Below are positions 6,326-63,480 of a DNA stretch of 64,000 bases, piece after piece. How positions within the stretch are numbered: position 1 is the first letter of the stretch; each line of letters begins with the position of its first letter. The translations under genes and the position numbers were made by a program. The DNA lies in contig OZ024743.1 of assembly GCA_964016885.1 (NCBI GenBank), forward strand, positions 156,798,001 through 156,862,000, given 5' to 3'. The DNA comes from Eledone cirrhosa (lineage: Eukaryota). The notes below the pieces were generated by a model, which saw only the letters and a list, made by a program, of their open reading frames with translations, did not search any database and was not told the DNA's origin.

Positions 6326-7081
6326 AGACGGAGAGAGAGAAAAACCGAGAGAGGGAAAAGTGGAGAAAGAAAGGGAGAGATAAAGAAAGGAAAAGAGAAA
6401 AAGAGAAAAAAAAAAGAAAAAAGAAAAAAAGAAAAAAGAAAAAAAAGAAAAAAGAGAAAAACGAGAGAGAGATATCAAAACACCAGACAGAGAGAAAAAA
6501 TCAAGAGAGAGAAATATAGAGATAGAGAGAGGGAGAGAGAACGAAAACCTTAAGTCATGTCATATTAAGTTAAGTTAACAATTGAGATGAAATGAATAAA
6601 TAAAATTAGAAATATTAATATTCACGAATGGAATATACATATATAATATGAGACATTAATCATTGTTTAACTATGATTATATATTTAGTTTAAAAATTGA
6701 GATCAATATATTAAAAATTGGAATTTAAACATTAAGAAATCTATATATTGCTAGAGAAAATTATCTATCATATAACACGTACACACAGGCAAAAATACAC
6801 ATAAATATATATATATACACACTCAGAAGATACAATTTATATCTACTCCCGTATATAATATATACATACAAAGCATAAATTATTTGTTTAATTAATGTAT
6901 ACATTCCTTGTGTTATTAAATAAAAATGTAAATCTATCCCTAAAAATATATCCATAAGGATCTCCCGGCTGTCGTCTAATTTGCAGACCTTCAACGTGCA
7001 TGCTGAGTATTATAATGACGCACTTAGAAAAATGGTTACTGCGAGAAAATAGAATATCTAGACGATAACCACATAAGTACT

Positions 7082-7918
7082 ATGAATAAAACACATCTAA
7101 GTCGAACTAGTATTGCACCACACACACACATCAATAGGCATACTAATAGGTGCAAACCAGCAAATAGAACCAGACGTAGAGAGTACATATGGTATAACCC
7201 CGTGTACAATATTTCTATTAGCACTAAGATTATCTCACAATTCTATACACTAATCAATAAACACTTTACAACTTCACATAAATACTATAAAATCTTTAAC
7301 TCGCGCACCATTAGACTCTCATACTCCCCTGCACCTAACATAGAACAACTAATTAAAAAACTCAACTCAGCAATACTAAATAAGTACATCCCTAATGACT
7401 CAGCGCACCGGCATAGCAACATACAACGCACTAACACGCAACTACAACCCCACCAAACTATCCAGGATTCTACTGCAAAACATAAAAATAATTGTAACTG
7501 CACCAAACCAGGTACGTGCCCACTGAGTAACCAGTGCCTAGCACGCAATATTGTCTACCGATGTACAATAAACTCCGGAACCAACAAATGGTATTACGTC
7601 GGATGTACCGCAACTTCTTTCAAAGCTCGCCTATACCAACATCGATCTTCGATCAGGCACGAAAAACTGCGCTCCGTAACAACCTTCGGCGATAAAGCCT
7701 GGCAGCTCCGGAGGAACAATCAAGCATTCTCCCTTGATTGGCAAATTATTGCTGCTGCGCCGGCATATAGGCAGAATCATCGATTCTGTAAAGTATGCAA
7801 TATGGAGATATACTGCATTTTAACGTCGGTAAACAAACTTTTGAACAGCAAAATTGAACGTTCACTGTACTGTAACCATCGTTTGAAAACGACTTTTTAT
7901 TTTATTAAATGCATGTAA
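7082..7918 (+). CDS. PLE linker + GIY-YIG endonuclease (C-terminal part of PLE ORF)
   Basis: YIWYNPVY, TIRLSYS, CNCTKPGTCPL (CxCx5C), IVYRC...YYVGCTATSFKARLYQH, CKVCNME, LLNSKIE, CNHR. Confidence 0.85.
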   Translation: MNKTHLSRTSIAPHTHINRHTNRCKPANRTRRREYIWYNPVYNISISTKIISQFYTLINKHFTTSHKYYKIFNSRTIRLSYSPAPNIEQLIKKLNSAILNKYIPNDSAHRHSNIQRTNTQLQPHQTIQDSTAKHKNNCNCTKPGTCPLSNQCLARNIVYRCTINSGTNKWYYVGCTATSFKARLYQHRSSIRHEKLRSVTTFGDKAWQLRRNNQAFSLDWQIIAAAPAYRQNHRFCKVCNMEIYCILTSVNKLLNSKIERSLYCNHRLKTTFYFIKCM

Positions 7919-8328: not shown

Positions 8329-8445
8329 GGGTCTGACGACATGGTGTGTTTGCTTACAGTGTACCTTCGGTTTATGATAATATTTGTGTATTATTCAAAT
8401 AGCGAGGTATAGTTAACACATACACTATAGAAACAATTGTTACCT
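8329..8445 (+). ncRNA. Type I hammerhead ribozyme with ~90-nt extended stem II
   Basis: GGGT CTGACGA C-ATGGTGTGT...ATACACTAT-A GAAA CAATTG TT ACCT; palindromic stem III. Confidence 0.65.
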
Positions 8446-12104: not shown

Positions 12105-14990
12105 AGTTAATCTGTAAACGCAGAAGTGGATATTTCAAAAAGCGTTGCAACCGGAGGAAGACAGGAAGACGATACTTTGGTTCGTGGAAACGTTCGCTGG
12201 CAAAGAACGGGAAAAAACGAAAATAATACGTCATTAATAGGAGCGGTGAAAAACAATTACGCGCAAAGACAGAACCACGTTTATGGTATAAAAGAGGTCG
12301 TAGACTAATGTTCTCTTAGTTGGTTAATAGAGAGGTTCTCTGGCGATGAACGAGAAAAACGAAGATAATACGTCATATGTGGAGCGTGGAGAACAATAGC
12401 ACGCAAAGACAGAACCACGTAAATGGTATAGCAGAAGTCGTAGACTAAAGTTCTAACTAGGAGACCGAATGAATCTCCGCTACAGAGTTAAGAACAAAGT
12501 AAATAAATACAATACAGAAGTCATAGAAATAAATAAATACATACACGCAAACAAATACGTACATACACAAGCATACGCAAAACACTTACCATCGGTATAC
12601 AAAACCACGCACATATAAATATGTGTGTGTGTATGCGTTTATACAAATAAGTAAATAATTATATAAACGTATATAAATAAATAAATACGCATATAACAAG
12701 CGCACACACATACCTACATGTAAATACACGAATCTTCGTAGACGTAAGTCAACCAAAACATGAAGTACACATATACGCACACCCTACATACGTACGAACC
12801 TGCATACTCACACAGACGCAAAACACCCGTATACACATAGCCAAACCATATGTACCAGAATATATAAAATTATACGCCATAACATAAACAATCAAGTATA
12901 CGTACGAGAAGGTATACGTACCTTCACAAAACCTACGGGTAAATTATACTTACCTATGCAAATAAGTAATGGTATAAACAAAACATACTTAGCTCCCACA
13001 TCAAGACGTAAAATATCCATGTATAAATCGTACTATCCGTTAGGGTATAACGTGGGGCTGTAATACAGGAAAGTTTTGTGCAATGTATGTTTACAAGGCG
13101 AAATTGCCTCAGATTTTTTGTTTAAGATGTGGTCTGTGGCGTAGAGTATTTCCAGGGGCTCAGCGGCGCAGAGGTCAAATGGTCTTTTATTTCCATTATA
13201 CGATCTAGGCCTAGCTAGGATCTCCCAGTGTAAATTATATTGGGTGTGGCTGTCTTTTAGACTCCAGATATAAGCTGAAAGTGACGTCATATTCCTTCTT
13301 AGAGGGTAACGAAAAGAATGGTTATGCATGTAAAGACGCTGCTTGAATCTATTGGCGGTTAAGCCTATGTAGGCCCTACGGGTGTTCCAACCTTACATTT
13401 GTAGACAATGTTACTAGAGAGGCATTTCCCGGATAGAAGTCAATCAACTCGATTCTTACAATTACAGTTAGTACTAACTACAGGGTTGCACGTGTTCCTA
13501 TGGCCAGGTAGTTTAGCTAAATTTGAAGCTGTGATGTTATGTGCAAGGTTAGGAGTCGTAGAGTAAGAAATTTGAATAGTATTTCTATTAAAAATTCTAC
13601 TATACTTATGTGTAGGAGGAAAATGCTTCGTAATAAGGGAAAGAAAGATCTTAGCTAATGGTGTGGCCACCTCCATATTATATGGGGTGTTATACCAACA
13701 AATGCGACGGGATCTATTTCTTCTAGGTCTATTTTCGTACTCTGTATATGCTACCTTATCGACAAATCCACGTCGAGCAAGAGCTTCATTGTAATAAGTG
13801 GTATGGTCGTTGAAAATACGCTCGTTGGTGGAAAGACGGGAAGGCCTCGACGAAACGTTTCTTACCAGGTTCTTGGTTATGCTGGTTCTTGGTTATGCTG
13901 GTTGGAATGCTTACCTATGTAATTAAGCGTATCATTCGGCTTTCTATACGGGTAATACAACCCATTCAATAAATTGAGGGTAACGTGGATGTAATTAACG
14001 ACCGAGAGATTGGCCTCAACCTGTATAGAGAGTTTGGAGCCTTTAAAGAAGGCTGTGAGTTCTTTTCTGAACCTGTCGCAAGCACTAGGTCCGCACTTAG
14101 TCGTGGTCAAAAGACCATCGTCACGGTACAAACCACCGCCCGCGTTGGGGAATTCATCCTTGATAGAGAAAAGAAGGAAAAGGCCAATAAGATCAGTAAC
14201 CTCCGCAGAATCACTGGCGCCCATACTCACTTCGAATGGGGGTACTATTGGATTTTTGAATCCAAATAGAGTCGTCGAAATTAATCATCGACTTTCGGGC
14301 ATTGAGGATGACATCAACTTCGAAATCCTTAACCCACTGTTAGTGTTTTAGTGAAATTGATAGCTCTAAGGAGAAGTGGTAAAGTGATGGAGGAGTAGTA
14401 ATTGTTGATGTCGAATTGGATAAAACGGCAATGTTCCTTGTTACATATGCCGTTGAACCAATCAATAACGCGAAAGAATTGTTCCACAGTGCAAGAGGGG
14501 CCAAACTTCTAATTTCTGGTATAATTCTATCAAGAATCGTTTTACTAACTTTACCTAAATCGGACTTCGTAGGCTTAATAAGCCGAATAGAGGGGTTGTT
14601 CAGAAAATTGGATTTGTGATACTTCAGGGTAAAGTGGGGAGAAATAGGGTCCAGACCTTCGGTCCGGTCCAGGATGTTGAGGTCAGATGTGATTTTAAAC
14701 CCAGCATCGTTCCAAAACATCATTTTCGAAGGGTAGCAATGCTGGGTTACACGGGGGGTTATTATAGGTTTTAAATCCAAATTTATCCTGTTTGTTGTCT
14801 GATTTTCGCGGATTATCGAAATAAAAGGCACGCCAACGCAACCTTTTAATGAACGCGTCTGTTTTCTGTATCAGGAGTTTTAGATACGTTTTCCTGCTTG
14901 GTACGGGTATGTTCTTTGTAGAAATATTAAGATGTTGTTTCTGCATGATGAATATAAGTCAGTAGAGTGCTCAACCGAGGGAGCCAAATA
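12105..14990 (-). mobile_element. Hydra-type PLE, left arm of a head-to-head inverted pair (RT + GIY-YIG pseudogene)
   Basis: ORF pieces MQKQHLNISTKNIP..KRLRWRAFYF, SIRLIKPTKSDLGKVSK, MGASDSAEVTDLIG..LYRDDGL, CNCKNRVD, LNKKSE. Confidence 0.92.
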
Positions 14991-15329
14991 TTACTATTTG
15001 ACTCCCTCGATTGAGCACTCTACTGACTTATATTCATCATGCAGAAACAACATCTTAATATTTCTACAAAGAACATACCCGTACCAAGCAGGAAAACGTA
15101 TCTAAAACTCCTGATACAGAAAACAGACGCGTTCATTTAAAGGTTGCGTTGGCGTGCATTTTATTTCGATAATCCGCGAAAATCAGACAACAAACAGGAT
15201 AAATTTGGATTTAAAACCTATAATAAGCCCCCATGTAACCCAGCATTGCTAACCTTCGGATATGATGTTTTGTAACTCATTCGGAGTATCAAATTTCGGA
15301 ATAGGAGCAATTCCTTCCATCAAGACCTG

Positions 15330-16644
15330 ATGAATAAAATTCGTTCTATTAAGGATTCTAATGCCGTGCACGTCCATTCCGACAAAACTGGCAACCTATA
15401 TCAAGTGGAGCGCAGTACTTACCATCAACTACTACATAATGCTGTAACTAAGGATTACCGTAAAACTAATCGGTGCGTCATCAATGAAATCAACGATGCT
15501 AGGGTTAAAATCACATCTGATCTCAACATCCTGGACCTGACCGAACGTCTGGACCCTATTTCTCCCCATTTTACCCTGAAGGATCACGAATCCAATTCTC
15601 CGAACAACCCCTCTATTCGGCTTATTAACCCTACGAAGTCCGATTTAGGTAGACTTAGTAAAACGATTCTTGATATAATTATACCAGAAATTAGAAGTTT
15701 GACCCCTCTTGCACTGTGGAACAATTCTTTCGCGGTGATTGATTGGTTCAACGGCATATGTAACAAGGAACATTGCCGTTTTATCCAATTCGACATCAAC
15801 AATTACTACTCCTCCATCACTTTACCACTTCTCCTTAGAGCTATCAATTTCGCTAAAACACTAACAGTGGTTAAGGATTTCGAAGTTGATGTCATCCTCA
15901 ATGCCCGAAAGTCGGTGATTAATTTCGACGACTCTATTTGGATTAAAAAATCAAATAGTACCCCGTTCGACGTGAGTATGGGCGCCAGTGATTCTGCGGA
16001 GGTTACTGATCTTATCATTAGCTAAGATCTTTCTTTCCCTTATTACGAAGCATTTTCCCCCTACACATAAGTATAGTAAAATTGTTAATAGAAATACTAT
16101 TAAAATTTCTTACTCTACGACTCCTAACCTTGCACATAACATCACAGCTTCAAATTTAGCTAAACTACCTGGCCGTAAGAACACGTGCAACCCTGTAGTT
16201 AGTACTAACTGTAATTGTAGGAATCGGGCTGATTGCCCCCTATCCGGGAAATGCCTCTCTAGTAACATTGTCTACAAATGTAAGGTTGTAACACCCACGT
16301 CCCGTAGGGCCTACATAGGCTTAACCGCCAATAGATTCAAGCAGAGTTTTTACATGCATACCCATTCTTTTCTTTACCATCTAAGAAGGAATATGACGTC
16401 TCTTTCAGCTTATATCTGGAGTCTAAAAGACAACCAATATAAGTTACACTTGGAGATCATAGCTAGGGCTAGATCGTATAACGGAAATAAAAGACCATGT
16501 GACCTCTGCGCCGCTGAGGCCCTGGAAATACTCTACGCCACAGACCACATCTTAAACAAAAAATCTGAGGCAATTTCGGCTTGTAAACATAAATTGCACA
16601 AAACTTTCCTGTATTACAGCCCCACGTTATACCCTAACGGATAG
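15330..16644 (+). pseudogene. PLE reverse transcriptase-GIY-YIG ORF with internal deletion of the YRDD/thumb segment
   Basis: Jumps from SAEVTDLI directly to LAKIFLSLITKHF; the missing segment is present in the left arm (about 13660-14190). Confidence 0.85.
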
Positions 16645-17578
16645 TACGATTTATACATGGATATTTTACGTCTTGATGTGGGAGCTAAGTATGTTTTGTT
16701 TATACCATTACTTATTTGCATAGGTAAGTATATTTTACCCGTATGTTTTGTGAAGGTACGTATACCTTCTCGTACGTATATTTGATTGTTTATGTTATGG
16801 CGTATAATTTTATATATTCTGGTACATATGGTTTGGCTATGTGTATACGGGAGTTTTGCGTCTGTGTGAGTATGCAGGTTCGTACGTATGTAGGGTGTGT
16901 GTATATGTGTACTTCATGTTTTGGTTGACTTACGTCTACGAAGATTCGTGTATTTACATGTAGGTATGTGTGTGCGCTTGTTATATACGTATTTATTTAT
17001 TTATATACGTTTATATAATTATTTATTTATTTGTATATACGCATACACACACACACATATTTATATGTGCGTGGTTTTGTATACCGATGGTAAGTGTTTT
17101 GCGTATGCTTGTGTATGTACGTATCTGTTTGCGTGTATGTATTTATTTATTTCTATGACTTCTGTATTGTATTTATTTACTTTGTTCTTAACTCTGTAGC
17201 GGAGATTCATTCGGTCTCCTAGTTAGAATTTTAGTCTACGACTTCTGCTATACCATTTACGTGGTTTTGTCTTTGCGTGCTATTGTTCTCCACGCTCCAC
17301 ATATGACGTATTATCTTCGTTTTTTTCGTTCATTGCCAGAGAACCTCTCTATGAACCACCTAAGAGAACATTAGTCTACGACCTCTTTTATACCATAAAC
17401 GTGGTTCTGTCTTTGCGCGTAATTGTTTTTCACCGCTCCTATTAATGACGTATTATTTTCGTTTTTTCCCGTTCTTTGCCAGCGAACGTTTCCACGAACC
17501 AAAGTATCGTCTTCCTGTCTTCCCCGGTTGCAACCTTTTTTGAAATATTCACTTCTGCGTTTACAGATTGACTTTGTT

Positions 17579-21849: not shown

Positions 21850-23620
21850 ATACACAAATTTACGTTAATATTTCCATCACGAATTTCAATCATTTTCGAA
21901 TATTCTTTGCGAAATCATGGTTATTTTCTTAAATTTATTTAAACAAGCATTGACTTAAAAGCTACGGGGGTTAGTTCAACTGAAACCGACAGCTAAGCAC
22001 TTATCTAAGCACTTATTTTTTAAAGGACAGTTTGATTTAATTCTACAATTACATTTAGCAGAGTTGATGTTATTGGGAACGGTATTATTGCTATTTTGGT
22101 TATGATTTAAATTTCTATTATTGATTCTATTTATATTTTGTGCTATGTCATAGTAGTAGAGTAGGATAGTTTTATTGTATGTCTGTTAAAGATTGAGTGG
22201 TATCTATGGGTTTTAGGGAAACATTTATCTAGAGCTTTAATGAATAGTTTAGCTAAAGGTGTTTTAACGCTTAATGAGAAAGGAGGTGAAAACCAAATTA
22301 TATTTCTAGTTCTATTTCTCCTGTTAGTTTTAGAGTTTAAGTAAGGTTTTCTATTGTAATGATAATTAATAATAGGGTTATTTGGCTTATCACTGTTGTC
22401 GATGTATTTAATCTTATTTATATAGCCTGCTCTGTTTAAAGCTTCATTATAATATTCTGCCTTAACGTCAACGATGTTTTTGTTAGCAGAGATTCGAGGA
22501 ATACGTTGCTGTATAGAATTTACAATAGTGTTCTTAATATATCTAGAATGACTGGAGTTGAAGCTTAAATAGTTTAAATTCTCATTAGTTTTATGGAATG
22601 GATAGTAGAGCCCTGTGTTAAGGTTTAATGTTACGCCTAAAAAGTTAACAATTTTGTAGTTATTCTTCATTTCTAACTTAAGATTGTAGCTATTGAAAAA
22701 TTGTATTATTGATTTTCTTTTTCTATTAATTTCAGAATTACTATGATTTTAATTAAGAGCAGCATATCATCACAATATAAAACACCGGTCATCTCTGGTA
22801 TTTTTCTCTGTAGTGTATTATTAATAAATATCCCCACAATGTCCGTTAATTCCGCCGAGTGCGATGACCCCACGGTGAAATCAAAATTATTTTTTCTATC
22901 AGCTCTAGTCCATAGATGGGTGTTGAATTCAATTAAAGTTTTCGTGGGGTTAAAATGATATGCATTTCTTCACTAGATAAATCTGTATGTTTAGATGCAT
23001 AGACAAAGGCTTTATTAAGTAGATTAGGAGTGATAGAGGAGTAGTAATTTGCAATATCCAATAGAATGTATTTTATGTTATTGAACCAATTTGTAACTTG
23101 GTTAGTACCGTTCCATAGTTTTAGGTAAGATATTTCTTTAAGTTGCGGTATGATTCTATCTAATATATGTTTACTAACTATGCCTAAGTCTGATTGAGAT
23201 GGTGCTATAAGTCTAACTGGTAGTTCTATTTCAAAGTTTCTTATGTGGACTTTCAAATTAATTTTTGGTTTTCTAGGTAGAAAGGGTTCGGTCCTATTTT
23301 CGATGCCTAATTTATGAATTATTTCAGAATCTTCTCTATTTAGCATTTCCGGTCTTCTTTGGAAGTTATTTTGTAGTTATTCCGTAGTTCTTTCAATATA
23401 AGGTTATTGTATTCGTCCTTTTTTCATTCCGTATAAATTGTTGGTTTTGTCAGATTTTACGAGGATTTTCTCAATTTTTTCAAGATTTTCTATATTATTC
23501 TTAAGGTCTTTAAGGTATTCCTGGCTTGCAAATTATTTTTTCTTGAATTAGATGTTTTGTATAATTGATATTATTTTATTTTCAAATTCCATTAATAGCT
23601 TGTTGTTAGGTGGATTTTAC
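21850..23620 (-). mobile_element. Decayed Hydra-type PLE (RT + linker)
   Basis: PVRLIAPSQSDLGIVSKHILDRI, LDIANYYSSI, VNFLGVTLNLNTG..PFHK, NIIWFSPPFS, KCNCRIKSNCPLKNKCL. Confidence 0.9.
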
Positions 23621-27462: not shown

Positions 27463-27601
27463 GATTTAATGCTCTGAAATAGCGATATATATGTGAAGAC
27501 AAACATAGAATATTCGAAAATATTCTGTATGTTTATAATAAACATTTTGAAGACCTAATCGCTATAGAATAGAATACGTCACGTATTACAATTTGAGATT
27601 C

Positions 27602-27660
<59 letters not shown>

Positions 27661-27840
27661 TCAATACATTAACAGAGAGAGCCTTAAGCTATACTCTGAC
27701 TGGCTTCCATCTCACTCAACAAACATTAGGATATACATTAGTATAATCCCAATTTTACGTTTGGGGTGCTAAGTATATGTATTTTGCGGAAGGCCAGTAG
27801 TATTATTTTATATGAGACATAATTAAAATATATCTCCTTT

Positions 27841-27962
27841 TCCAAACAATTGTTTCATTATAAGTTTTCTACAAGTTGGGAGAATGTGTACGGGTTATGT
27901 AGAAGCCTTCACAACATTCCGTAGGAATATATGCAGGTGGGCACTTATAAATCATCAGTGGA
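27841..27962 (-). ncRNA. Type I HHR with long branched stem II
   Basis: TCCA CTGATGA T TTATAAGT...ACTTATAA T GAAA CAATTG TT TGGA. Confidence 0.75.
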
Positions 27963-28573
27963 TGCCCGTCAAACATCGATATAAAAAAAATTCTCTTACC
28001 GATGTTTTAATCCCATGTCAGCGATTGTCTCTCTCCGTATCAGAATGACCGCCAAATTTGAAATTCCAGCAGTCTCAGAATGAGGAGTCTCACACTGTCT
28101 TCAAGCGGAAAGGGGAGGTAATCGCGAAACACAAGGATTTAAAATAATATACACGTGGGTCAATTAATTTTTTCAACAATTTTAATCTCGCGTGTGAAGA
28201 ACACAATTAGATTTTAAAAAAATAAATATAAGCATGTATTATTTATACACGCATACTGGTATTTTCTTAGTCTAAAAACAGAGATATGATACCAGAATAA
28301 CAATCAATATTACATAGTAATAATAACTACGGAAAGTTACGCTTAAAAGGTATCTGGAAGTATTCATCTCAGGCCAAATCAAGAGTATAATATTCAATAC
28401 ATTAACAGAGAAAGCCTTAAGCTATACTCAGACTGGCTTCCATCTCGCTCAACAAACATTAGGATATACATTAGTATAATCCCAATTATACGTTTGGGGT
28501 GCTAAGTATATGTATTTCGAGGAAGGCCAGTAGTATTATTTTATATGAGACATAATTAAAATATATCTCCTTT

Positions 28574-28695
28574 TCCAAACAATTGTTTCATTATAAGTTT
28601 TCTACAAGTTGGGAGAATGTGTCCGGGTTATGTAGAAGCCTTCACAATATTCCGTAGGAATATATGCAGGTGGACACTTATAAATCATCAGTGGA
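28574..28695 (-). ncRNA. Type I HHR with long branched stem II (second copy)
   Basis: Same core and helices as 27841-27962. Confidence 0.75.
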
Positions 28696-28863
28696 TGTCC
28701 GTCAGAAATCGATATAAAAAAAATTCTCTTACCGATGTTTTAATGCCATGTGAGCAATTGCCTCTCTCCGTATCAGAATGACCGCCAAATTTGAAATTCC
28801 AGCAGTCCCAGAATAAGGAGTACGGAGGATGTTATAGTTCACTTGAAGCATTGTGTAATGAGG

Positions 28864-29163
28864 TATAAACGTTTGTATATGTATAATAAAGCCAAAACAA
28901 TGCAGGTATGGACATAGAATCAAAATTGCAAATACAAAAGATATTGTTGACAATTAGTCTTTTACCTTAGATTTATTCAAATGTCCTTAATTTTCGAGAT
29001 AATATCTCTTCTTCGGAGGGAAGAAGAGATATTATCTCGAAAATTAAGGACATTTAAATAAATCTAAGGTAAAAGGCTAACTGTCAACAATATCTTTTGC
29101 ATTTGCATTCTTTATTATAAGTGAATACCTGCATTGTTTTGGCTTTATTATACATATACAAAC

Positions 29164-29170
<7 letters not shown>
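28864..29170. repeat. Fold-back of a PLE pLTR end (~150-bp arms); U4C HHR at 28984-29020 on minus
   Basis: CCCT CCGAAGA A GAGATA T TATCTC GAAA AT TA AGG; same family as 47787-47945. Confidence 0.85.
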
Positions 29171-30167: not shown

Positions 30168-30902
30168 TTACCTATGCAAATAAGTAAAGGAATAAACAAA
30201 ACATATACTTAGCTCCCACATCAAGACGTAAAATATCCACGTATAGATCGTGCTATCCGTTAGGGTATAACGTGGGGCTGTAATACAGGAAAGTTTTGTG
30301 CAATTTATGTTTACAAGCCGAAATTGCCTCAGATTTTTGTTTAAGATGTGGTCTGTGGCGTAGAGTATTTCCAGGGCCTCAGCGGCGCAGACGTCATATG
30401 GTCTTTTATTTCCGTTATACGATCTAGCCCTAGCTAGGATCTCCCAGTGTAACTTATATTGGGTGTGGTTGTCTTTTAGACTCCAGATATAAGCTGAAAG
30501 TGACGTCATATTCCTTCTTAGAGGGTAACGAACAGAATGGGTATGCATGTAAAGACGCTGCTTGAAACTATTGGCGGTTAACCCTATGTAGGCCCTGCGG
30601 GACGTGGGTGTTACAACCTTACATTTGTAGACAATGTTACTAGAGAGGCATTTCCCGGATAGGGGGCAATCAGCCCGATTCCTACAATTACAGTTAGTAC
30701 TAACTACAGGGTTGCACGTGTTCCTACGGCTAGGTAGTTTAGCTAAATTTGAAGCTGTGATGTTATGTGCAAGGTTAGGAGTCGTAGAGTAAGAAATTTT
30801 AATAGTATTACTATTAACAATTTTACTATATTTATGTGTAGGGGGAAAATGCTTCGTAATAAGGGAAAGAAAGATCTTAGCTAATGGTGTGGCCACCTCC
30901 AT
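30168..30902 (-). pseudogene. PLE linker + GIY-YIG endonuclease (frameshift near C-terminus)
   Basis: CNCRNRADCPLSGKCLSSNIVYKCKV..AYIGLTANSFKQRLYMH. Confidence 0.85.
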
Positions 30903-31726
30903 ATTATATGGTGGGTTATACCTTCTCGTACGTATATTTAACTGTTATGGCGTATCATTTTTACATATTCTGGTATTTAGGGTTTGGCTATGTGTATACG
31001 GGTGTTTTGCGTCCGAGTGAGTATGCAGGTTCGTACGTATGGTGGGTGTGTGTATATGTGTACTTCTTGTTTTAGTTGACTTACGTCTCCGAACATTCGT
31101 GTATTTATATGTAGGTATGTGTGTGCGCTTGTTATATACGTATTTGTTTACTTATATACGTTTATATAATTATTTATTTATTTGTACACAAGCATACACA
31201 CACACACATATTTATATGTGCGTGGTTTTGTATACCTATGGTAAGGATTTGCGTATGCTTGTGTATGTACGTATCTGTTTGCGTGTAAGTATTTATTTGT
31301 TTCTATTACTTCTGTATCGTATTTATTTACTTTGTTCTTAACTCTGTAGCGGAGATTCATTTGGTCTCCTAGTTAGAATTTTAATCTACGACTTTTGCTA
31401 TACCATTTACGTGGTTTTGTCTTTGCGTGCTTTTGTTCTCCACGCTCCACATATGACTTATTATCTTCGTTTTTTCGTTCATTGCCAGAGAACGTCTATA
31501 TGCACCACCTAAGAGAACATTAGTCTACGACCTCTTTTATACCATAAACGTGGTTTTGTCTTTGCGCGTAATTGTTTTTCACCGCTCCTATTAATGACGT
31601 ATTATTCGTATTTTCCCGTTCTTTGCCAGCGAACGTTACCACGAACCAAAGTATCGTCTTCCTGTCTTCCTCCGGCTGCAACGTTTTTTGAAATATCCAG
31701 TTCTGCGTTTACGGATTGACTTTGTT

Positions 31727-36699: not shown

Positions 36700-38950
36700 A
36701 GAAGTGTTTAGACGGGGTCCGTATTTGTTAATAAAGTGAGATTCCTTGCTGATGCGCTGGATGTGGGTGGCATTATTTTTAAATTTGTAGAGAGGAAAGA
36801 TTCTGAAGTTGGGATGATTTGGGGCTCAACAGGTATCAATGTGTTCACTCAGTGGTATTTTCCTGTATTCCCGTATTTTAATTTGGGATCTATGGACAGT
36901 CATGCGTTGGCGAGGCTGTTTTTGGTCTGGCCTATGTATTGTTCTCGACAACCTGAGCAAGTTAATACATATATTAGATTTTCTGATGCGCATGTGAAAT
37001 TGTGTTTTAATATAAAACGTTTTCCTTCTTTGAAATACAATTCCGAACCATCTATTAGGTTGATGCATATGCCACAGTTGGGTCTATCACATTTTTTTAC
37101 TGTGGGTTTCGTTGTTGTGGTTGGCAGTACTTTGGCATGGGTTAGGATGTTTTTCATTGACTTACATTGTCTTTTGCTCTTTATGATATCGTGTGTTCGT
37201 AGGATTTGGTTCATTCTATGGTCCCTTTTTAACACAGGGATGTTCTGGAGGATGGTTTCAAAGGCCTCATTGTTGAGGGGGTTGAGTGTGGAGGTGTATG
37301 GAAGAGATTTTAGTTGCGGTTGATTTACTTTAGGGTGTCTAAGTTCCTGGGTACTGAGTTTTAGGGCACGTTGGATTCCATTGTCAATTAGTGATGCAGG
37401 GTAGTACCTGCCTATGTGTGTGTCCTTTAGTTCTTGTAGCCGTAAGTAACAGGTGTTTTTATTGGAGACTATAGTACAGATTCTCTTGGCTAAGATGTAG
37501 GGAATATTAATTTTAACGTGTCTAAGGTGCCAAGAGTTGAAAGGAAGATATTGCTTGGAGTATGTGGGCTTGTAGTATATGCCTGTTTCTATTTTTTTTT
37601 TTGTTATGAATCTTAATGAGGATGTCGAGGAAGGGGAGTTGTTGATGGCTGTATTCCATCGTAAAGTTAATATTCGTATTGAGCCCATTTATAAGGGTGT
37701 GAAATTCTTTAAGTTTCTCGATGTTTTCGTGCCAAAGGGTGAAGTCATCTAGATATCGCTTCCAGTTCCTTTCTATGTGTAAGTGGAAAGTGTTTCCAAA
37801 TGTGTTTAGTACTTTAGTGTAGATGGTGATTTCCATGTATCCCATGACTAGGTTGGCATAAGTGGGGGCTGTTTTCGTTCCCATAGCGGTCCCAGATTTC
37901 TGCCTGTAGGATTTGTTATTGAAAACGAAGTAATATTTCTCCAAGATAAATTTGAGTCCCTCTATCACGAATTCTTGTTTGATGCGTTGTAGGAGTTCAT
38001 TGTGGTAATTATCCAGCCAGAATTGGATGGCTTCTATTCCTAGGTTGTGGGGGATGTTGGAGTATAGGTTGACTACATCGAACGTCACTAGTAGGGTTTG
38101 TTCAGACAGGGGCATATTAGGGAGGTGATTGAGCATATATAGGTCGTCCCTTATATAGCTTTTGATGTGTTTTAGAAAAGGCTTGAGAAGGTTATCAATG
38201 AAGTTGCTAAGGCGGTGGGTTTCGCAAGCGGGCCTGCTATTATAGGTCTTAATTTGAGATCATTGGGTGAGGGGACATTGATGACTATGTCTGTGGCTTC
38301 CTAGCATGCCTTACTTATTAATTCGCTTTTATGTACTTTAGGGATACCGTAGAAAAGGCTGGATTTACTTGTGAAATCTGTGATGAAGCTGGATTCCTTG
38401 TTAGTGAGTCCTTCTTTGTATTGGTTGATCAGAGTTTTTAGGTTTCTCATAATTTTCTGTTGATTGTAGTGTTCAGCCTTTTCGTAGTATGTTTCGTTTT
38501 CCAAAGTGGAGAGCGCTAAGTTGATATATAATTTTGTCTCCATTAGGACAACTGTACTCCCTTTATCAGCCTCTTTAATTGTAATGGTTCTGTCGGTTTT
38601 TAATCTACTTAATTCTTCCCATTCTTTCTTGTTGAGGTTTGGCTTGTGTTTTTGTCTGTGCAAGTGTTGGTAAGGGAAGTCTGTGATGTGTTCACAGAAT
38701 TCGTCCAGGATTTTATTTCTACCTTTTGATGGGGTGTATTTACTTCTATTTCTGGCTAATGATTCATCCTCATTGTACTGGTCGAATAGTTCTTCACTGA
38801 GTCGTAACTTTCTACAGAACCCTGTGATGTCTTCCTTCATTTCATAGTAGTTAGGACGTAGTGGGGTCGGTGTGAATTTAAGACCTTTGGAGAGTAAGTT
38901 CATAAGGTTGGGTGTTGGTTCTGCACTAGTTAGATTGATAATTGTTATTA
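36700..38950 (-). pseudogene. Neptune-type RT + Zn-linker + GIY-YIG ORF (frameshifted)
   Basis: LLSKGLKFTPTP, IKEADKGSTVV, FYGIPKVHK, RPII, TFDVVNLYSNIPH, GTAMGTKTAPTYANL, WKRYLDD, LPFLDI, YYKPT, CDRPNCGIC, NLIYVLTCSGCREQYIGQT. Confidence 0.93.
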
Positions 38951-38977
38951 CTCTCGGTTTCTGCTCCCTGTGTTGTG

Positions 38978-40208
38978 TTATTTTGTTTGCCTGTATCTGT
39001 GTGCTGTGTCTAAAAAATGGTTGTGGTAGAGGGGTTGTCTGGTGATGTTAAGTGGTCTCCTGTGTTTGTTATATTCCTTGTTGTTGTAAAATGTGGTTCG
39101 GGTTCGTGGTTGTAGATTGAATGGGGTGTTCCTGTATTGCGAGTATGGATGTGTGTTTCTATGTGCCATGTTGGATTGTGGTGGTGTAGGTGACCTACGT
39201 TGTTGGTTGTATCGTGTGTTGTGGGTTTGTTGTGTATTGTGGAAGCGAGAGTTGAGAAAATGGAAATTACCTTGCTGTCCCCTTGAAGCGGGGAGTTGTT
39301 ACATCTATATGTTTGACGATGAGGCATCCGCGTAGTAGTTGAGTGATTTTGTATGGTGTCTCCTTGAAGGGGGAAAGTTGTAAATGTCATTCTGGGGTGA
39401 TGATTTCTAGAGTTTATGTTCCTTCTTATCGTAGCGAAGTTGGGAAGTGCATCTTCCGTGTGGTGCTTCCTTCTTCTTTTGTTAGTGGCGGGGGGGGGGG
39501 GGGGCGAAGTTGTTGTGCGGTTCGGTTATGGGTTTTCCAATTTTTATGAACGGGTTATTGGAGGTGTAATCCGTTTAAAAAGTCGATTCATAGTTTAGGA
39601 ACCAAGCGGCACTTTTTTCCCAGCGTTGACGGGATTTCAGTTCTTCTCTGTTGCAGTCCCCTTTCCATAATTTAGAGATCTTCTCTGCCTTGGGGCCTTC
39701 AGTCTTATTGTTGATTTCCAGGAGGATCTCTTCATCGATGGTTTTGATTTTTTCCTCATTTGTCTGGGCCCTCAATTTAAGAAGTTCAATTTCTGTCTTC
39801 ATTTTTTACAATGCCATTCTTTCCCTAAGGTGTCTTTGAGGTTCGGGTCCATTTTTCATATAACTCCGCTTTGTTGTGATTTTATATCATCTTCCAGAAT
39901 GAGAACTTTCTGTTTCTGAGGGATGTGTTCCATTTTGGAATTGTTCGAATTTTCATTTTGTATAAATATATCTCACATTGTTCTTCGTTGGGTTTTCCTG
40001 GGTTGGTAGTAGTGAACATAGTTTGGATAGTATCGCAAAGGTTTTGAAGTTTATCGCCGATTTCGGAGGGTTTGTATCCGATGACGGTTTCCTCATTTGT
40101 GGAGTCAAGTTTGTCGACCAGCACAGATAGGTAGGTGTTAATTTTCTTGAGCTCCTGTAGAATCTCTTCATTTGTGTTGATAAGTGTTGTATCTGTTTTT
40201 GTTGGCAT
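38978..40208 (-). pseudogene. Upstream ORF1/N-terminal extension of the Neptune-like element (helical, then low complexity), frameshifted
   Basis: ATG 48 bp after the 5' pLTR; consecutive same-strand ORF pieces 39882-40208, 39575-39802, 39010-39390, 38978-39169. Confidence 0.6.
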
Positions 40209-47149: not shown

Positions 47150-47945
47150 AAGACTGGGTGATATATTTTAATAGGAGACTCCAATGCTTATGTTGTACCT
47201 GATTACCTGAAGTGATTGGAACGAGCGGTGACACAGATCTAAATGCGAATTGAGTGGCCTTAATAGATATACGTTCTAGTAATGCGCTCTTTGTTAAGGT
47301 TTTGTCATTGTTTTTGCATTTCAAAAACACCGACAAAAACATAACAGTTAGGATAGAAACTAAGGAAAGAAACCTCGGCAATCTTAGAATTAAGGAAGCA
47401 CTAATTAGAGACAAAACGCCACCACCAATCAATAATAGACTAGAACTCAACACCGAATTTATAACTTGATAGAGCATCTAGCCCCATGCTTAAACCCCCC
47501 CCACACACACACGCAGACACACACACATACACACACACAAAGACTAGTTCTAACACGAGAGAACATCTATCCCTCACATTTACGTATAGACATATTTTCT
47601 CACACTCACACACACACACACACACATACTTACACATTCACGCATTCTCCCACAAACTTAAACAGACATGTAAAAAAAAACCTTTTAAAGGAAGACTACT
47701 CTTTATCCACCTAACATTAACTCTATACCATTCCCTGTCAGCACGACTTGGCAAGCTGACAGGAACACTGGTTTAACCGCTTTACTTCCATCCGAAGAAG
47801 AGATAGTATCTCGAAAATTAAGGACATTTAAATAAAGCTAAGTTAAAAGACTAATTGTCAACAATATCTTTTGCATTTGCATTTTTCTTTTTAATTCTAT
47901 TTCCATACCTGCATTGTTTGGCTTTACAAATTCAAACGTTTATCT
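47150..47945 (+). mobile_element. PLE 3' end (GIY-YIG C-terminus, CA tract, pLTR with U4C HHR at 47787-47824)
   Basis: LHFK..RIETKERNLGNLRIKEALIRDKTPPPINNRLE; CCGAAGA AGAGATAGTATCTC GAAA ATTA AGGA. Confidence 0.75.
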
Positions 47946-48077
47946 ATATATATATATATATATGTATGTATATATATATATATATATATATGTAAGTATG
48001 TATGTATACGTACATACATATATGTATACAGACGTACAGTAGCATGCATATATATATATATATATATACATACAGGT

Positions 48078-50545: not shown

Positions 50546-50707
50546 ATATATATATAATAAATACAATATAGGAGAAAGCTTTTTAGCGATACTCCGGACA
50601 AATTCCAACTCACTCAACAGACATTAGGAAATAAGTGATTATATTCCCAATTATGTGTTCGCGGTGCTAACTAAAAGTATTGCGTGGAAAATTGGCTGTA
50701 TTATTTC

Positions 50708-50898
50708 AAAGGCGGTGGATTGGCCGTATCGGTAGAGGGTCGGACGCCATGCTTTCCAGCATAGTTACGTCCCTTTACCATCTGAGTTCAAATCCCGCCG
50801 AGGTTGACTTTGCCTTTCATCCTTACGGGGTCGATAAAATAAAGTACCAGTAATGCACTGGTAATTGCTGGCCTTGTGCCTAAAGTAGAAACAATTAT
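50708..50898 (+). mobile_element. tRNA/Nin-domain SINE
   Basis: aaggcggtggattggccg..gagttcaaatcccgccgaggttgactttgcctttcatccttacggggtcgataaaat. Confidence 0.85.
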
Positions 50899-50928
50899 TT
50901 CAAATGACATATATCTAATATATCTCTT

Positions 50929-51055
50929 CCCAGACAGACGTCTCGTTTCATTATAGGATTCCTACAATTTGGGTGAAATTATACCAATTTATGTAGGAGC
51001 TTGTATACCATCAATAGATATATATTCAAGTGGGCTCCTATAAATCATCAGTTGG
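50929..51055 (-). ncRNA. Type I HHR with branched stem II, diverged relative of 27841/28574
   Basis: CTGATGA T TTATAGG...CCTATAA T GAAA CGAGACG TC; helix I imperfect. Confidence 0.62.
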
Positions 51056-51438
51056 TGCCCCAATACTACTAATATTGATAATCTAACCAACATCAGCATT
51101 TAGCGATAATCACTTTCTGTGCCTGAGGTATCTGTCAGGTTGCCAGTCCAGCAGTTCTGAATGAAGTGCTCGAACTGATTCAAAAAATGAGGAAGTGAAT
51201 TACCGCAAAAAAAAACAATACATGCGCGTGACAATGAACTCTGAAAGGAATTCAGGCCACGTGCTAAGAACTCAATTGGAAATTGAAAAAATATCTATGT
51301 GTGTACAACATTTGATGACACACAGACATTCTCTCGGGCAAAGTAACAGAATGAGATATAAGGAACAATCAATATTCATATATAAAAAATAAACAAAGAA
51401 ATGCTAACCTTATACCGGGAATTTTTTTCATATCAGCC

Positions 51439-55539: not shown

Positions 55540-55912
55540 CCACAGGGCTCAAGTTAGACCTATCCGGGATTTCCAATGCAGAGAATGTGCATTTTTGTTG
55601 ATGTCTGCATGATGACCTCGGATTTCAGGTTGGCTGCGTCACCCTTTAATCTCACTATTTCTATGGCTTCGGTCACGCACAGCCTGTATCGCCCCTCGCC
55701 AGCTGAGTCTCCATTTGCACGTTGAATGATACTCCAGTTGAGATCGTACGCAATGCCACTATCTTTCAAGTCCCAGATCAAGTCTACCAGCCTTCTGAAC
55801 TGCCCCTTACTCCAGTCCTTAAAAGAATTCATGTGATTTGACATCCTCGACTTAAAAGTCGTGTGTGTTGCACCGATGTAGGTGAGCTTAGCTTTTTGCG
55901 TGTCAAACACAT
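55540..55912 (-). mobile_element. PLE GIY-YIG fragment
   Basis: [54 protein letters not shown]. Confidence 0.85.
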
Positions 55913-55952
55913 TTATATATAAATAAATAAATAAATAAATAAATATATATAT

Positions 55953-58149: not shown

Positions 58150-58990
58150 ACATGTTATAGGTGTTAATGGTAATCAGTGTGGTACCTGGCGAAAGTACAT
58201 AAATCCCTGTGTTCACAATACAAAATCCTGTCCTGGCGAGAGTTTAACAGATCCAAACCATACATGATCTCCATTACCTCCCTCTTACAAAGGTCACAAG
58301 ACTGACTTTTATTTTGGTATGGGTGTGCGAACCTTAATACGGCCCGGGAGAGAGTATAATCCGTATTGTTCTGTTTCAAGTCCCAGATCTGTTTGACTTA
58401 CTCAGCCTAGGATTCTAGAATGAATGTAAATGAACATGCCAGCTCTTCTTAAAAAAAGTTAGAATTTTCACCCACATATTTATACGTCCCCAAATTAGTT
58501 TCAACCACACACTGGTAAACCATGTTCCTATGCATGCACGTCCAATTTAAGGGACAGTTGTTAGATTGTCTGCAGTTACACCGCGTCTGTGGATATTATA
58601 TAGGGTAATTGTTTCTACCTGCATTAGGGGTGATGTGCCAAGTGTGAGGAAGTTGCGTTTGGTTCGCACGCACGTTATATGGACCATCCAAGAGGGTGGA
58701 TTTATCCTTTATCCTTGTTCAATGGGACGGGTTGGGAAACTGCTCTGGCCAGGTTGCATACCACTGTCAAAATCCAGGATGTGTTTATTGTTTATCCGTG
58801 CTATGAACCTGCTAAGGTTGGCTGTGATAGAGTAGGACAGGCGGAGCGTTTTTCTATTCAGGGATTTATGATATCTGTGTGCTGGAGGAAAGCTTTCGCC
58901 TAGTATTCGAAAGCCCTACGTTGCTACTTTAGTGATAAGTTGTTCGTTGTTTGGAGGATTAAACAACATATAGGATTTAGAGTAAGAGTG
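58150..58990 (-). mobile_element. Decayed Hydra-type PLE 3' coding fragment
   Basis: CNCR..NNCPLNWTCMHRNMVYQC..YKYVG; IWDLKQNNTDYTL..CDLCKREVMEI..LLNSRQDRILYCEH. Confidence 0.8.
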
Positions 58991-62720: not shown

Positions 62721-63069
62721 TTGCGACAATGAAGAGAATATACAGGCATGAAAAGATTATACAAGCTACTATGTGTAGTAGTAATGGCATTCAGTTAGAA
62801 CAATAACAACAATATCAACAATGCTAGCAATAAATTATTTGAAATAATCACAACATCAATCTAGGTGGGAAGTATAGTATATCTATGATTTTAGCGTGTA
62901 AAACTAGCTGACATGAGGCAGATGTATAAAATTGACATGTAAAGACTGTCGTATATCAAGTGTAAAGAAAGGCTGGTGTTTTTAAACAATGTAGGTCAGG
63001 TGGCCGTAATAGTCGGTTTTTATCTGACCGATGAAGTATTTATCACTGTAGTAGAATTTGTGTGGTCTA

Positions 63070-63480
63070 CCGGATAGGTGCCCATTGGCGAATAGATGTC
63101 TCGATTCGTGCCCAGTGTACATGTGTACGGTCAACTCAGACAACTCCACCTGGCATTACATTGGATCTACCGCGGGTTCTTTTAAAAAAAGATGGTATGT
63201 ACACAGGCACTCGATGAAAAATCTTGCACTTATGGGTTCTACAACCCTCGCCAAAAAATTATGGGAACTGAAGGACAACAACACTAGCTACAGTATCAAC
63301 TGGTCGATGTTGTCGGCTGCTAAAACCTACAGTACAGGTATGTTCCACTGTGGGCTATGTGATCTAGAACTACTGTATATCCTTAAAAATGTAAAATGGC
63401 TATTTAACAACAAGTTAGAAAGATCTATATTCTGCAGACACAAAATTGCCACTAAATTCATAAGATTTAAACCTCCATGA
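63070..63480 (+). mobile_element. Hydra-type PLE GIY-YIG fragment
   Basis: CPLANRCL..VYMC..HYIGSTAGSFKKRWYVH..TTLAKKLWELK..CGLCDLE..NNKLERSIFCRH. Confidence 0.88.

Follow-up and report, generated by a model that had tools for sequence, protein, structure and literature searches.

What kind of element carries two hammerhead ribozymes 733 nt apart, each with a stem II that opens into some 80 nt, and what might so large an insert contribute to a self-cleaving RNA? The question is raised by a locus on the minus strand of the 64,000-nt stretch of the Eledone cirrhosa genome analysed here, the whole of which is referred to below as the window (Table 1). The reading that best explains the observations jointly, which we hold with a probability of roughly 65%, is that of a non-coding, high-copy element with the insertion hallmarks of Penelope-like elements (PLEs) and a type I hammerhead with a conserved, predicted three-way-junction domain II; its RNA likely self-cleaves and circularises as a 733-nt molecule, and is likely copied into (TA)n by the enzyme of a Hydra-clade PLE acting in trans. 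Judged from the sequence, such an element likely combines the cutting of its own RNA with the borrowing of PLE enzymes. This kind of element is already known, as passages of PMC7229834 and bioRxiv 10.64898/2026.07.22.740005 make clear. We assign it to the non-autonomous PLE derivatives or non-LTR retrozymes, and what appears new is the structure of its hammerhead.

The sequence-only reading had described a 733-nt tandem. Two hammerheads do lie exactly 733 nt apart on the minus strand (CTGATGA starting at 28691 and 27958, GAAA at 28589 and 27856, the GUU triplet ending at 28578 and 27845), but the units are not complete; the repeat architecture is 437+296+437 nt followed by (TA)n, a partial tandem with two laps around a spacer. 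The absence of a credible open reading frame between the hammerheads was borne out, the longest ATG ORF in the monomer being 35 aa in sense and 54 aa in antisense, and an endonuclease profile found no contiguous remnant. The element is low in GC (34%), and the 733-nt monomer folded as a circle reaches -181.7 kcal/mol (z -4.8 against 25 shuffles). Private differences between the two laps are distributed unevenly, 15 upstream versus 2 downstream among the 17 that could be assigned. The 5' end of the element is adjoined by an unrelated repeat with a 307-nt palindrome (window 28826-29170), which recurs at 47785-48028 and in loci L010, L067, L093, L112 and L155.

Table 1. Features of the element and of a sister copy, in window positions
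Feature	Position	Strand	Details
Whole insertion	27652..28821	-	5'-truncated partial tandem of ~1.6 units; non-coding Penelope-like derivative
Upstream lap	28386..28821	-	437 nt; 95.7% identity with downstream lap
Spacer	28089..28385	-	~296 nt, fills up the 733-nt unit; without ORF
Downstream lap	27652..28088	-	437 nt; its end is the fixed 3' end common to other copies
Monomer, cleavage site to cleavage site	27845..28577	-	733 nt; prediction
Tail, cleavage site to fixed 3' end	27652..27844	-	~190 nt; putative reverse transcription start
(TA)n microsatellite at 3' junction	27605..27660	not applicable	Putative target
Hammerhead 1, type I	27841..27962	-	Helix I 27962-27959/27844-27841; CUGAUGA from 27958; GAAA from 27856
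Hammerhead 1, stem III and cleavage site	27841..27962	-	Stem III ACAAUUGU; predicted cleavage after U27845
Hammerhead 2	28574..28695	-	Layout of hammerhead 1 displaced by 733 nt; predicted cleavage after U28578
Distal extension of helix I	27829..27983	-	Predicted; TATATC 27983-27978 with GATATA 27834-27829
Domain II of hammerhead 1, predicted three-way junction	27858..27950	-	Stem II 27950-27943/27865-27858; junction GCCC 27942-27939
Sub-hairpins of domain II	within 27858..27950	-	IIa 27937-27906; IIb 27904-27867
GGGC in helix I internal loop	27964..27967	-	Complementary to GCCC 27942-27939; proposed loop I-loop II pseudoknot
Sister-subfamily copy	50549..51083	-	Same branched hammerhead at 51083-50906; 72-74% identical in aligned parts

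Both motifs have the layout of a type I hammerhead, with CUGANGA, GAAA and NUH in order and helices I, II and III present. Helix I is TCCA/TGGA in both, as had been noted, and CUGAUGA and GAAA are separated by 95 nt in both, of which an 8-bp stem II (TTATAAGT/ACTTATAA) encloses 77 nt, close to the ~80 nt first estimated. Stem III, previously read as the palindrome CAATTG, is instead ACAATTGT within a 12-nt palindrome, AAACAATTGTTT. The cores had been called canonical, which is true of the boxes and the GUU triplet but not of positions 10.1 and 11.1, where U faces U without pairing; this combination occurs in 97 of 121 copies (A-U in 19, G-C in 5) and is reported as tolerated in a passage of PMC3088659. 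The triplet is GUU in 91 of these copies, GUC in 24 and GUA in 5, a distribution to which the search pattern itself contributed. Perfect palindromes, of three different sequences, form stem III in 98 of the 121 copies, and most of the remaining copies keep the palindromic centre GACGTC. Such self-complementarity fits cleavage as a dimer, as described for PLE hammerheads in part of PMC4209133. Helix I, stem II and stem III each show at least one change on both sides across subfamilies; the distal extension of helix I is paired in 98% of alignment cells, with one-sided changes only.

The branched fold of domain II is best seen when the domain is considered by itself and across subfamilies. Folded alone, domain II forms a closing stem and two hairpins in 44 of 50 family copies (drawn from 82 extracted, near-identical ones being left out), with a mean z of -4.8 against shuffles, in agreement with the two sub-hairpins that the sequence-only reading had placed inside stem II. 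Folding of the whole ribozyme region, the check it had proposed, went the other way: the hammerhead fold is not adopted, and the z values of -0.14 and -1.42 are no better than those of shuffles. Covariation within the focal family is weak (4 of 50 pairs, a value equalled by 58 of 500 shuffles). Blind RNAalifold on 26 hand-picked sequences from three subfamilies recovered helix I, stem II, IIa, IIb and a small inner stem. Paired cells make up 94.2% of the total, compared with 36-48% in slid controls, and 13 of 38 pairs are altered on both sides, which none of 500 shuffles matched. The same blind fold came from 18 other sequences (18 of 32 model hits), with 9 of 31 pairs altered on both sides. 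These two-sided counts represent a handful of lineage-level events rather than independent ones, spread over every helix. Between the focal and sister subfamilies the identity of hairpin IIa falls to 55%, but pairing persists in 89% of its cells, and 4 of its 8 pairs are changed on both sides. Since changes occur in every helix and IIa stays paired at this identity, the modelled structure of domain II is likely under selection, and the alignments point to a 95-nt domain that is predicted to be branched and maintained through compensatory changes. The branched domain II is thus conserved across subfamilies, and an insertion without structural conservation among family members, which would have counted against the sequence-only reading, is not what we find.

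The element belongs to a large family in a genome of 3.0 Gb. A family-specific exact pattern had 1,869 matches compared with 0 for the reversed control, and so is not a product of chance; a second, non-overlapping pattern for the sister subfamilies had 1,434. We looked closely at ~130 of these >3,000 copies. The first search yielded 28 other loci, every one of which ends at element positions 1161-1170, with 5' ends scattered over positions equivalent to window 28051-28685. Among 51 further loci, including two that overlap, the distance from the cleavage site to (TA)n is 184-205 nt in 45; units in this set measure ~710-746 or ~990-1030 nt, and a copy holds at most two hammerheads, with one trimer found elsewhere. 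The ~990-1030-nt units (L042-L100, the long subfamily) stem from a ~250-nt internal duplication. Sister subfamilies are ~70% identical, with tandem units of ~690-780 nt and a tail of similar length. The sister copy in the window is broken right behind its hammerhead by a SINE-like, high-copy insert of ~195 nt (~50700-50904, minus strand) flanked by a TTTGAAATAAT duplication, and copies from two sister subfamilies, picked with a query that contained the insert, have it in an identical position. The metagenome scan with the family pattern returned 0 matches, and bacterial promoter and tRNA scans were uninformative.

A shared 3' end combined with variable 5' ends is a signature of PLEs. The family shows partial tandems, a fixed 3' end, variable 5' truncation and insertion at (TA)n, and these features match PLEs, particularly those of the Hydra clade, in a portion of PMC8557442. 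It also has tandem type I hammerhead units, at least two in a row, and no protein-coding capacity, so that its description as retrozyme-like holds. Seven of the 28 copies begin upstream of the first cleavage site and none begins on it, as expected for either a circle or uncut RNA. Polarisation was tried for 28 other tandem loci and succeeded for 27, in which the private changes of the two laps number 68 and 69; these laps look as if born together, which fits a circle and also uncut linear RNA. The asymmetry of the laps in the window is not explained by a single pass round one circle; an older copy that received a second insertion, or a template switch, would explain it.

Our reading has a PLE enzyme act in trans; the element, as far as sampled, brings no enzyme of its own. 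It has neither the reverse transcriptase (RT) nor the GIY-YIG endonuclease with a CxCX5C linker that neighbouring families possess, and is therefore not an autonomous PLE. Endonuclease matches lie upstream at 1 of 79 locus strands of the family and 2 of 32 of the sister subfamilies, and since (TA)n tracts cut all of them off, the element is non-autonomous within this sample. A DNA comparison with the flanks of other hammerhead families, of which few were sampled, did not find the autonomous partner, and in 28 loci read for one abundant family of Hydra endonucleases, the sequence behind the endonuclease gave no convincing match. Fragments of Hydra-type endonucleases are plentiful in the window and in the genome. 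Those in the window are broken, often as inverted pairs (12950-16720, 22000-23570, 30168-30944, 55650-55920, 58180-58980 and 63055-63480), an RT and endonuclease fragment of a different PLE type lies at 36900-39047 on the minus strand, and Pfam on seven window ORFs gave a single match, to one RT fragment. The abundant Hydra-type family (L206-L235) has open frames of up to 918 aa, with (TA)n ~230-250 nt after the endonuclease domain in most copies; 25 of the 28 loci read lack a CUGANGA box within 1,300 nt, although Hydra elements are reported to carry hammerheads.

A long domain II is not unique to the focal family and recurs in several unrelated ones, a point that, like the link to Penelope-like transposition, the sequence-only reading had missed. 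When the pattern kept the same GAAACAATTGT stem III, spacers of 5-34, 50-79 and 80-110 nt had 8,100, 2,928 and 4,763 matches, compared with 5, 8 and 3 in controls; the long-spacer bins hold some artefacts, attributable to a nearer core or to an inverted junction, and the long-spacer matches split into several unrelated families with ~58-100 nt in domain II. One of these hammerheads, with a 90-nt rod-like domain II and the same ACAATTGT stem III as the element, lies in the window itself (8333-8441, plus strand), 417 nt behind the ORF of a Hydra-type GIY-YIG endonuclease with a CxCX5C linker (7028-7918, plus strand). An endonuclease ORF lies upstream in sense at 5 of 6 loci of this family, at 3 of 4 of another and in 6 of ~28 rows of a third, and the distances from ORF to hammerhead are ~410-830 nt. 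For the third family (BD), 13 of 28 pairs are altered on both sides when a rod structure is set by hand; RNAalifold gave almost no consensus (5 pairs) and did not recover the rod blind. Members L110, L113 and L116 of the rod-domain family have CTGTA/GACTG in domain II and the complementary TACAG/CAGTC downstream of helix I; a different pseudoknot, seen by eye, is possible there. The window contains eleven further motifs resembling type I hammerheads, in which the core boxes are 12-38 nt apart (6191, 9866, 11653, 11939, 23797, 33975, 34327, 42977, 48085, 48597 and 60891); Rfam has none of them at the gathering score.

How would a ribozyme with such a domain reach its active fold? Single-molecule folding places the hammerhead fold of the focal family ~8-9 kcal/mol above a rival, inactive fold that pairs GGGCAU with GUGCCC across the core (the energy of any pseudoknot being excluded), and in most sister subfamilies the hammerhead lies ~4-6 kcal/mol above its competitor. 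The same GGGC and GCCC could form the loop I-loop II pseudoknot listed in Table 1. Their identity across subfamilies is high (96-98% for GGGC and 88-92% for GCCC, versus 46-64% for the upstream flank), and a pattern that includes both had 3,133 matches. The upstream hammerhead in the window carries GGAC/GUCC at these positions, a double change shared with L155 that at first resembled proof of the pairing, but the genome-wide counts are compatible with chance: alongside the 3,133 unchanged copies there are 36 and 42 single changes and 2 double changes, against 0.52 expected (p ~0.09, not significant). Similar loop-loop pairings are on record in passages of PMC3088659 and PMC7936874. A speculative extension, which we regard as rather doubtful, is that domain II is a protein-sensing module that makes these RNAs natural allosteric hammerheads; it would most plausibly sense the PLE reverse transcriptase and shift the inactive GGGCAU/GUGCCC fold to the pseudoknotted active one, and such modules would have grown independently in several PLE lineages.

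Other explanations of the locus differ in how much of this evidence they can accommodate. The 77 nt might be a neutral insertion in a decaying repeat, without selected structure. The failure of the whole region to fold better than shuffles would suit this, as would a copy (L066) without most of IIa, but domain II keeps to 93-97 nt in 118 of 121 copies and IIa shows compensated pairing at 55% identity; the blind folds of both sequence sets and their two-sided changes have largely refuted what we now regard as a very improbable account. A spliceosomal intron (GT...TTGTAG), removal of which would leave an ordinary short stem II, is suggested by the window copies, which have GT at the start of the insert and a pyrimidine run with AG near its end, and by a passage of PMC4209133 according to which PLE terminal repeats can contain introns. 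GT, however, is present in only 13 of 26 aligned copies, sister subfamilies having GA or GG, and its T takes part in a covarying stem II base pair; we have rejected the intron on these grounds and give it almost no credence. It is also improbable that the unit is the long terminal region (pLTR plus 3' UTR) of an autonomous PLE with a coding part that our sample of ~130 of >3,000 copies did not reach. The position of other long-domain-II hammerheads behind Hydra-type endonuclease ORFs invites the idea, but copies that cross the unit boundary continue into the previous lap, and the three upstream endonuclease matches are parted from the element by (TA)n tracts.

An account that we consider possible, if unlikely, retains the same element and fold and has the hammerhead cut only seldom. 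Domain II would then serve mainly as a scaffold for binding or folding by a PLE protein, and copies would arise from uncut, linear read-through RNA and template jumps, with no circle. The inactive fold is favoured by 8-9 kcal/mol, and 5' ends do not pile up at the cleavage site. In the parts of PMC11167929 that describe the only PLE reconstituted in vitro, uncut RNA was the main substrate and the hammerhead was protein-assisted. That this hammerhead needed protein and was dispensable for insertion also counts against our preferred reading, as do the frog retrozyme dimers, 8 of 9 of which remained uncleaved in vitro according to passages of bioRxiv 10.64898/2026.07.22.740005. Against this account, the core boxes, the NUH triplet and compensated helices I and III are retained across subfamilies, which suggests selection on catalysis, and the laps are symmetric in other loci.

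If the self-cleaving, circularising element is the correct reading, its life cycle may be pictured as follows. Read-through transcription would produce an RNA with two hammerheads, in which each domain II would fold locally and leave the core geometry intact, and the junction GCCC would dock on GGGC of the helix I loop, clasping helices I and II. The weak, self-complementary stem III would pair across the two hammerheads to form a double hammerhead, possibly with the help of a protein; each hammerhead would cut after GUU, and the released 733-nt monomer would be ligated into a circle. A PLE endonuclease would nick (TA)n, and reverse transcription would start ~190 nt past the cleavage site and run for up to more than one turn, which would yield in-register partial tandems with random 5' ends. 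A passage of PMC11167929 reports that reverse transcription of one PLE initiates internally, downstream of the hammerhead.

The comparison with known systems places the novelty in the loop of domain II. According to excerpts of PMC7229834 and bioRxiv 10.64898/2026.07.22.740005, metazoan non-LTR retrozymes share with the element their non-coding tandem units, each bearing a single type I hammerhead, along with low GC, a highly paired predicted circle and a proposed PLE origin. The unit length of the element falls inside the 51-972 bp range given in part of the latter and exceeds the 170-400 nt of the retrozyme circles that have been tested; its copies are dispersed, 5'-truncated partial tandems, whereas the retrozymes form long arrays, and the 95-nt domain II, predicted to be branched, sets it apart from them. 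Hydra-clade PLE hammerheads, in the portion of PMC8557442 that lists them, are like it in their (TA)n target, their position near the 3' end, a 4-bp helix I, U at 10.1 (often) opposite a pyrimidine, GUU, GUA or GUC triplets and a short, near-palindromic stem III, but their loop II has 3-10 nt rather than 77, and the element encodes neither the RT nor the endonuclease of these PLEs. The longest loops II in File S2 of the same source, as far as excerpted, are ~30-35 nt, in spikemoss PLE-X1, and marked as deviating.

Minimal PLE hammerheads, in passages of PMC4209133, likewise have a helix I of 4-5 bp and a palindromic stem III that suggests dimer cleavage; their typical G10.1-C11.1 is the rare state here (5 of 121 copies), and those passages contain no large branched loop II. 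The same passages give a larger-than-usual helix II of 7-8 bp, contrary to the premise of the sequence-only reading that stem II is very short in PLE hammerheads. The oddity thus lies in the 77-nt loop and not in stem II. Pseudoknotted hammerheads have Watson-Crick pairing of loops I and II like that proposed here (part of PMC3088659), and the GCCR in the helix I internal loop and YGGC in loop II of toad and termite HDV-like agents resemble GGGC/GCCC (part of PMC7936874). In these, as the excerpts describe them, helix I is lengthened by an additional hairpin, and loop II is terminal (type III), whereas the proposed pairing strand of the element lies in a three-way junction inside domain II. 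The discontinuous Clec2 hammerhead of mammals also has a core that is split by a large insertion and evades pattern searches (passages of PMC2950038 and PMC6765202); the search there was open to an insertion in either loop 1 or loop 3, the inserted stretch runs to several hundred nt, and the ribozyme lies in an mRNA 3' UTR rather than a mobile element.

The loop II of genomic hammerheads is usually assumed to be short, and descriptors and Rfam models have been built accordingly. As had been suggested for length-limited searches, Rfam finds neither hammerhead of the element: it had 0 matches at the gathering score in the window, and no hammerhead family matched 27600-28900 at E up to 5. This miss points to a search gap and does not exclude hammerhead membership. 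A branched or 60-100 nt domain II is not described for PLE or retrozyme hammerheads in the literature passages searched (which include parts of PMC13725137, PMC10085705, PMC6155905 and PMC6962438), and an earlier report may exist; core halves 35-50 nt apart are already mentioned in part of PMC8557442.

With >3,000 exact-pattern copies that have a 95-nt domain II, and unrelated families with ~58-100 nt, such genomes probably hold more hammerheads than have been counted, and PLEs recorded as hammerhead-free may in some cases need re-inspection. If domain II were indeed an allosteric module, a class of thousands of ribozymes would have been overlooked by current models. The many subfamilies of the element provide a natural mutant series for the role of the extra domain, and they are also suited to the question of whether PLE hammerheads are assisted by proteins and make circular templates.
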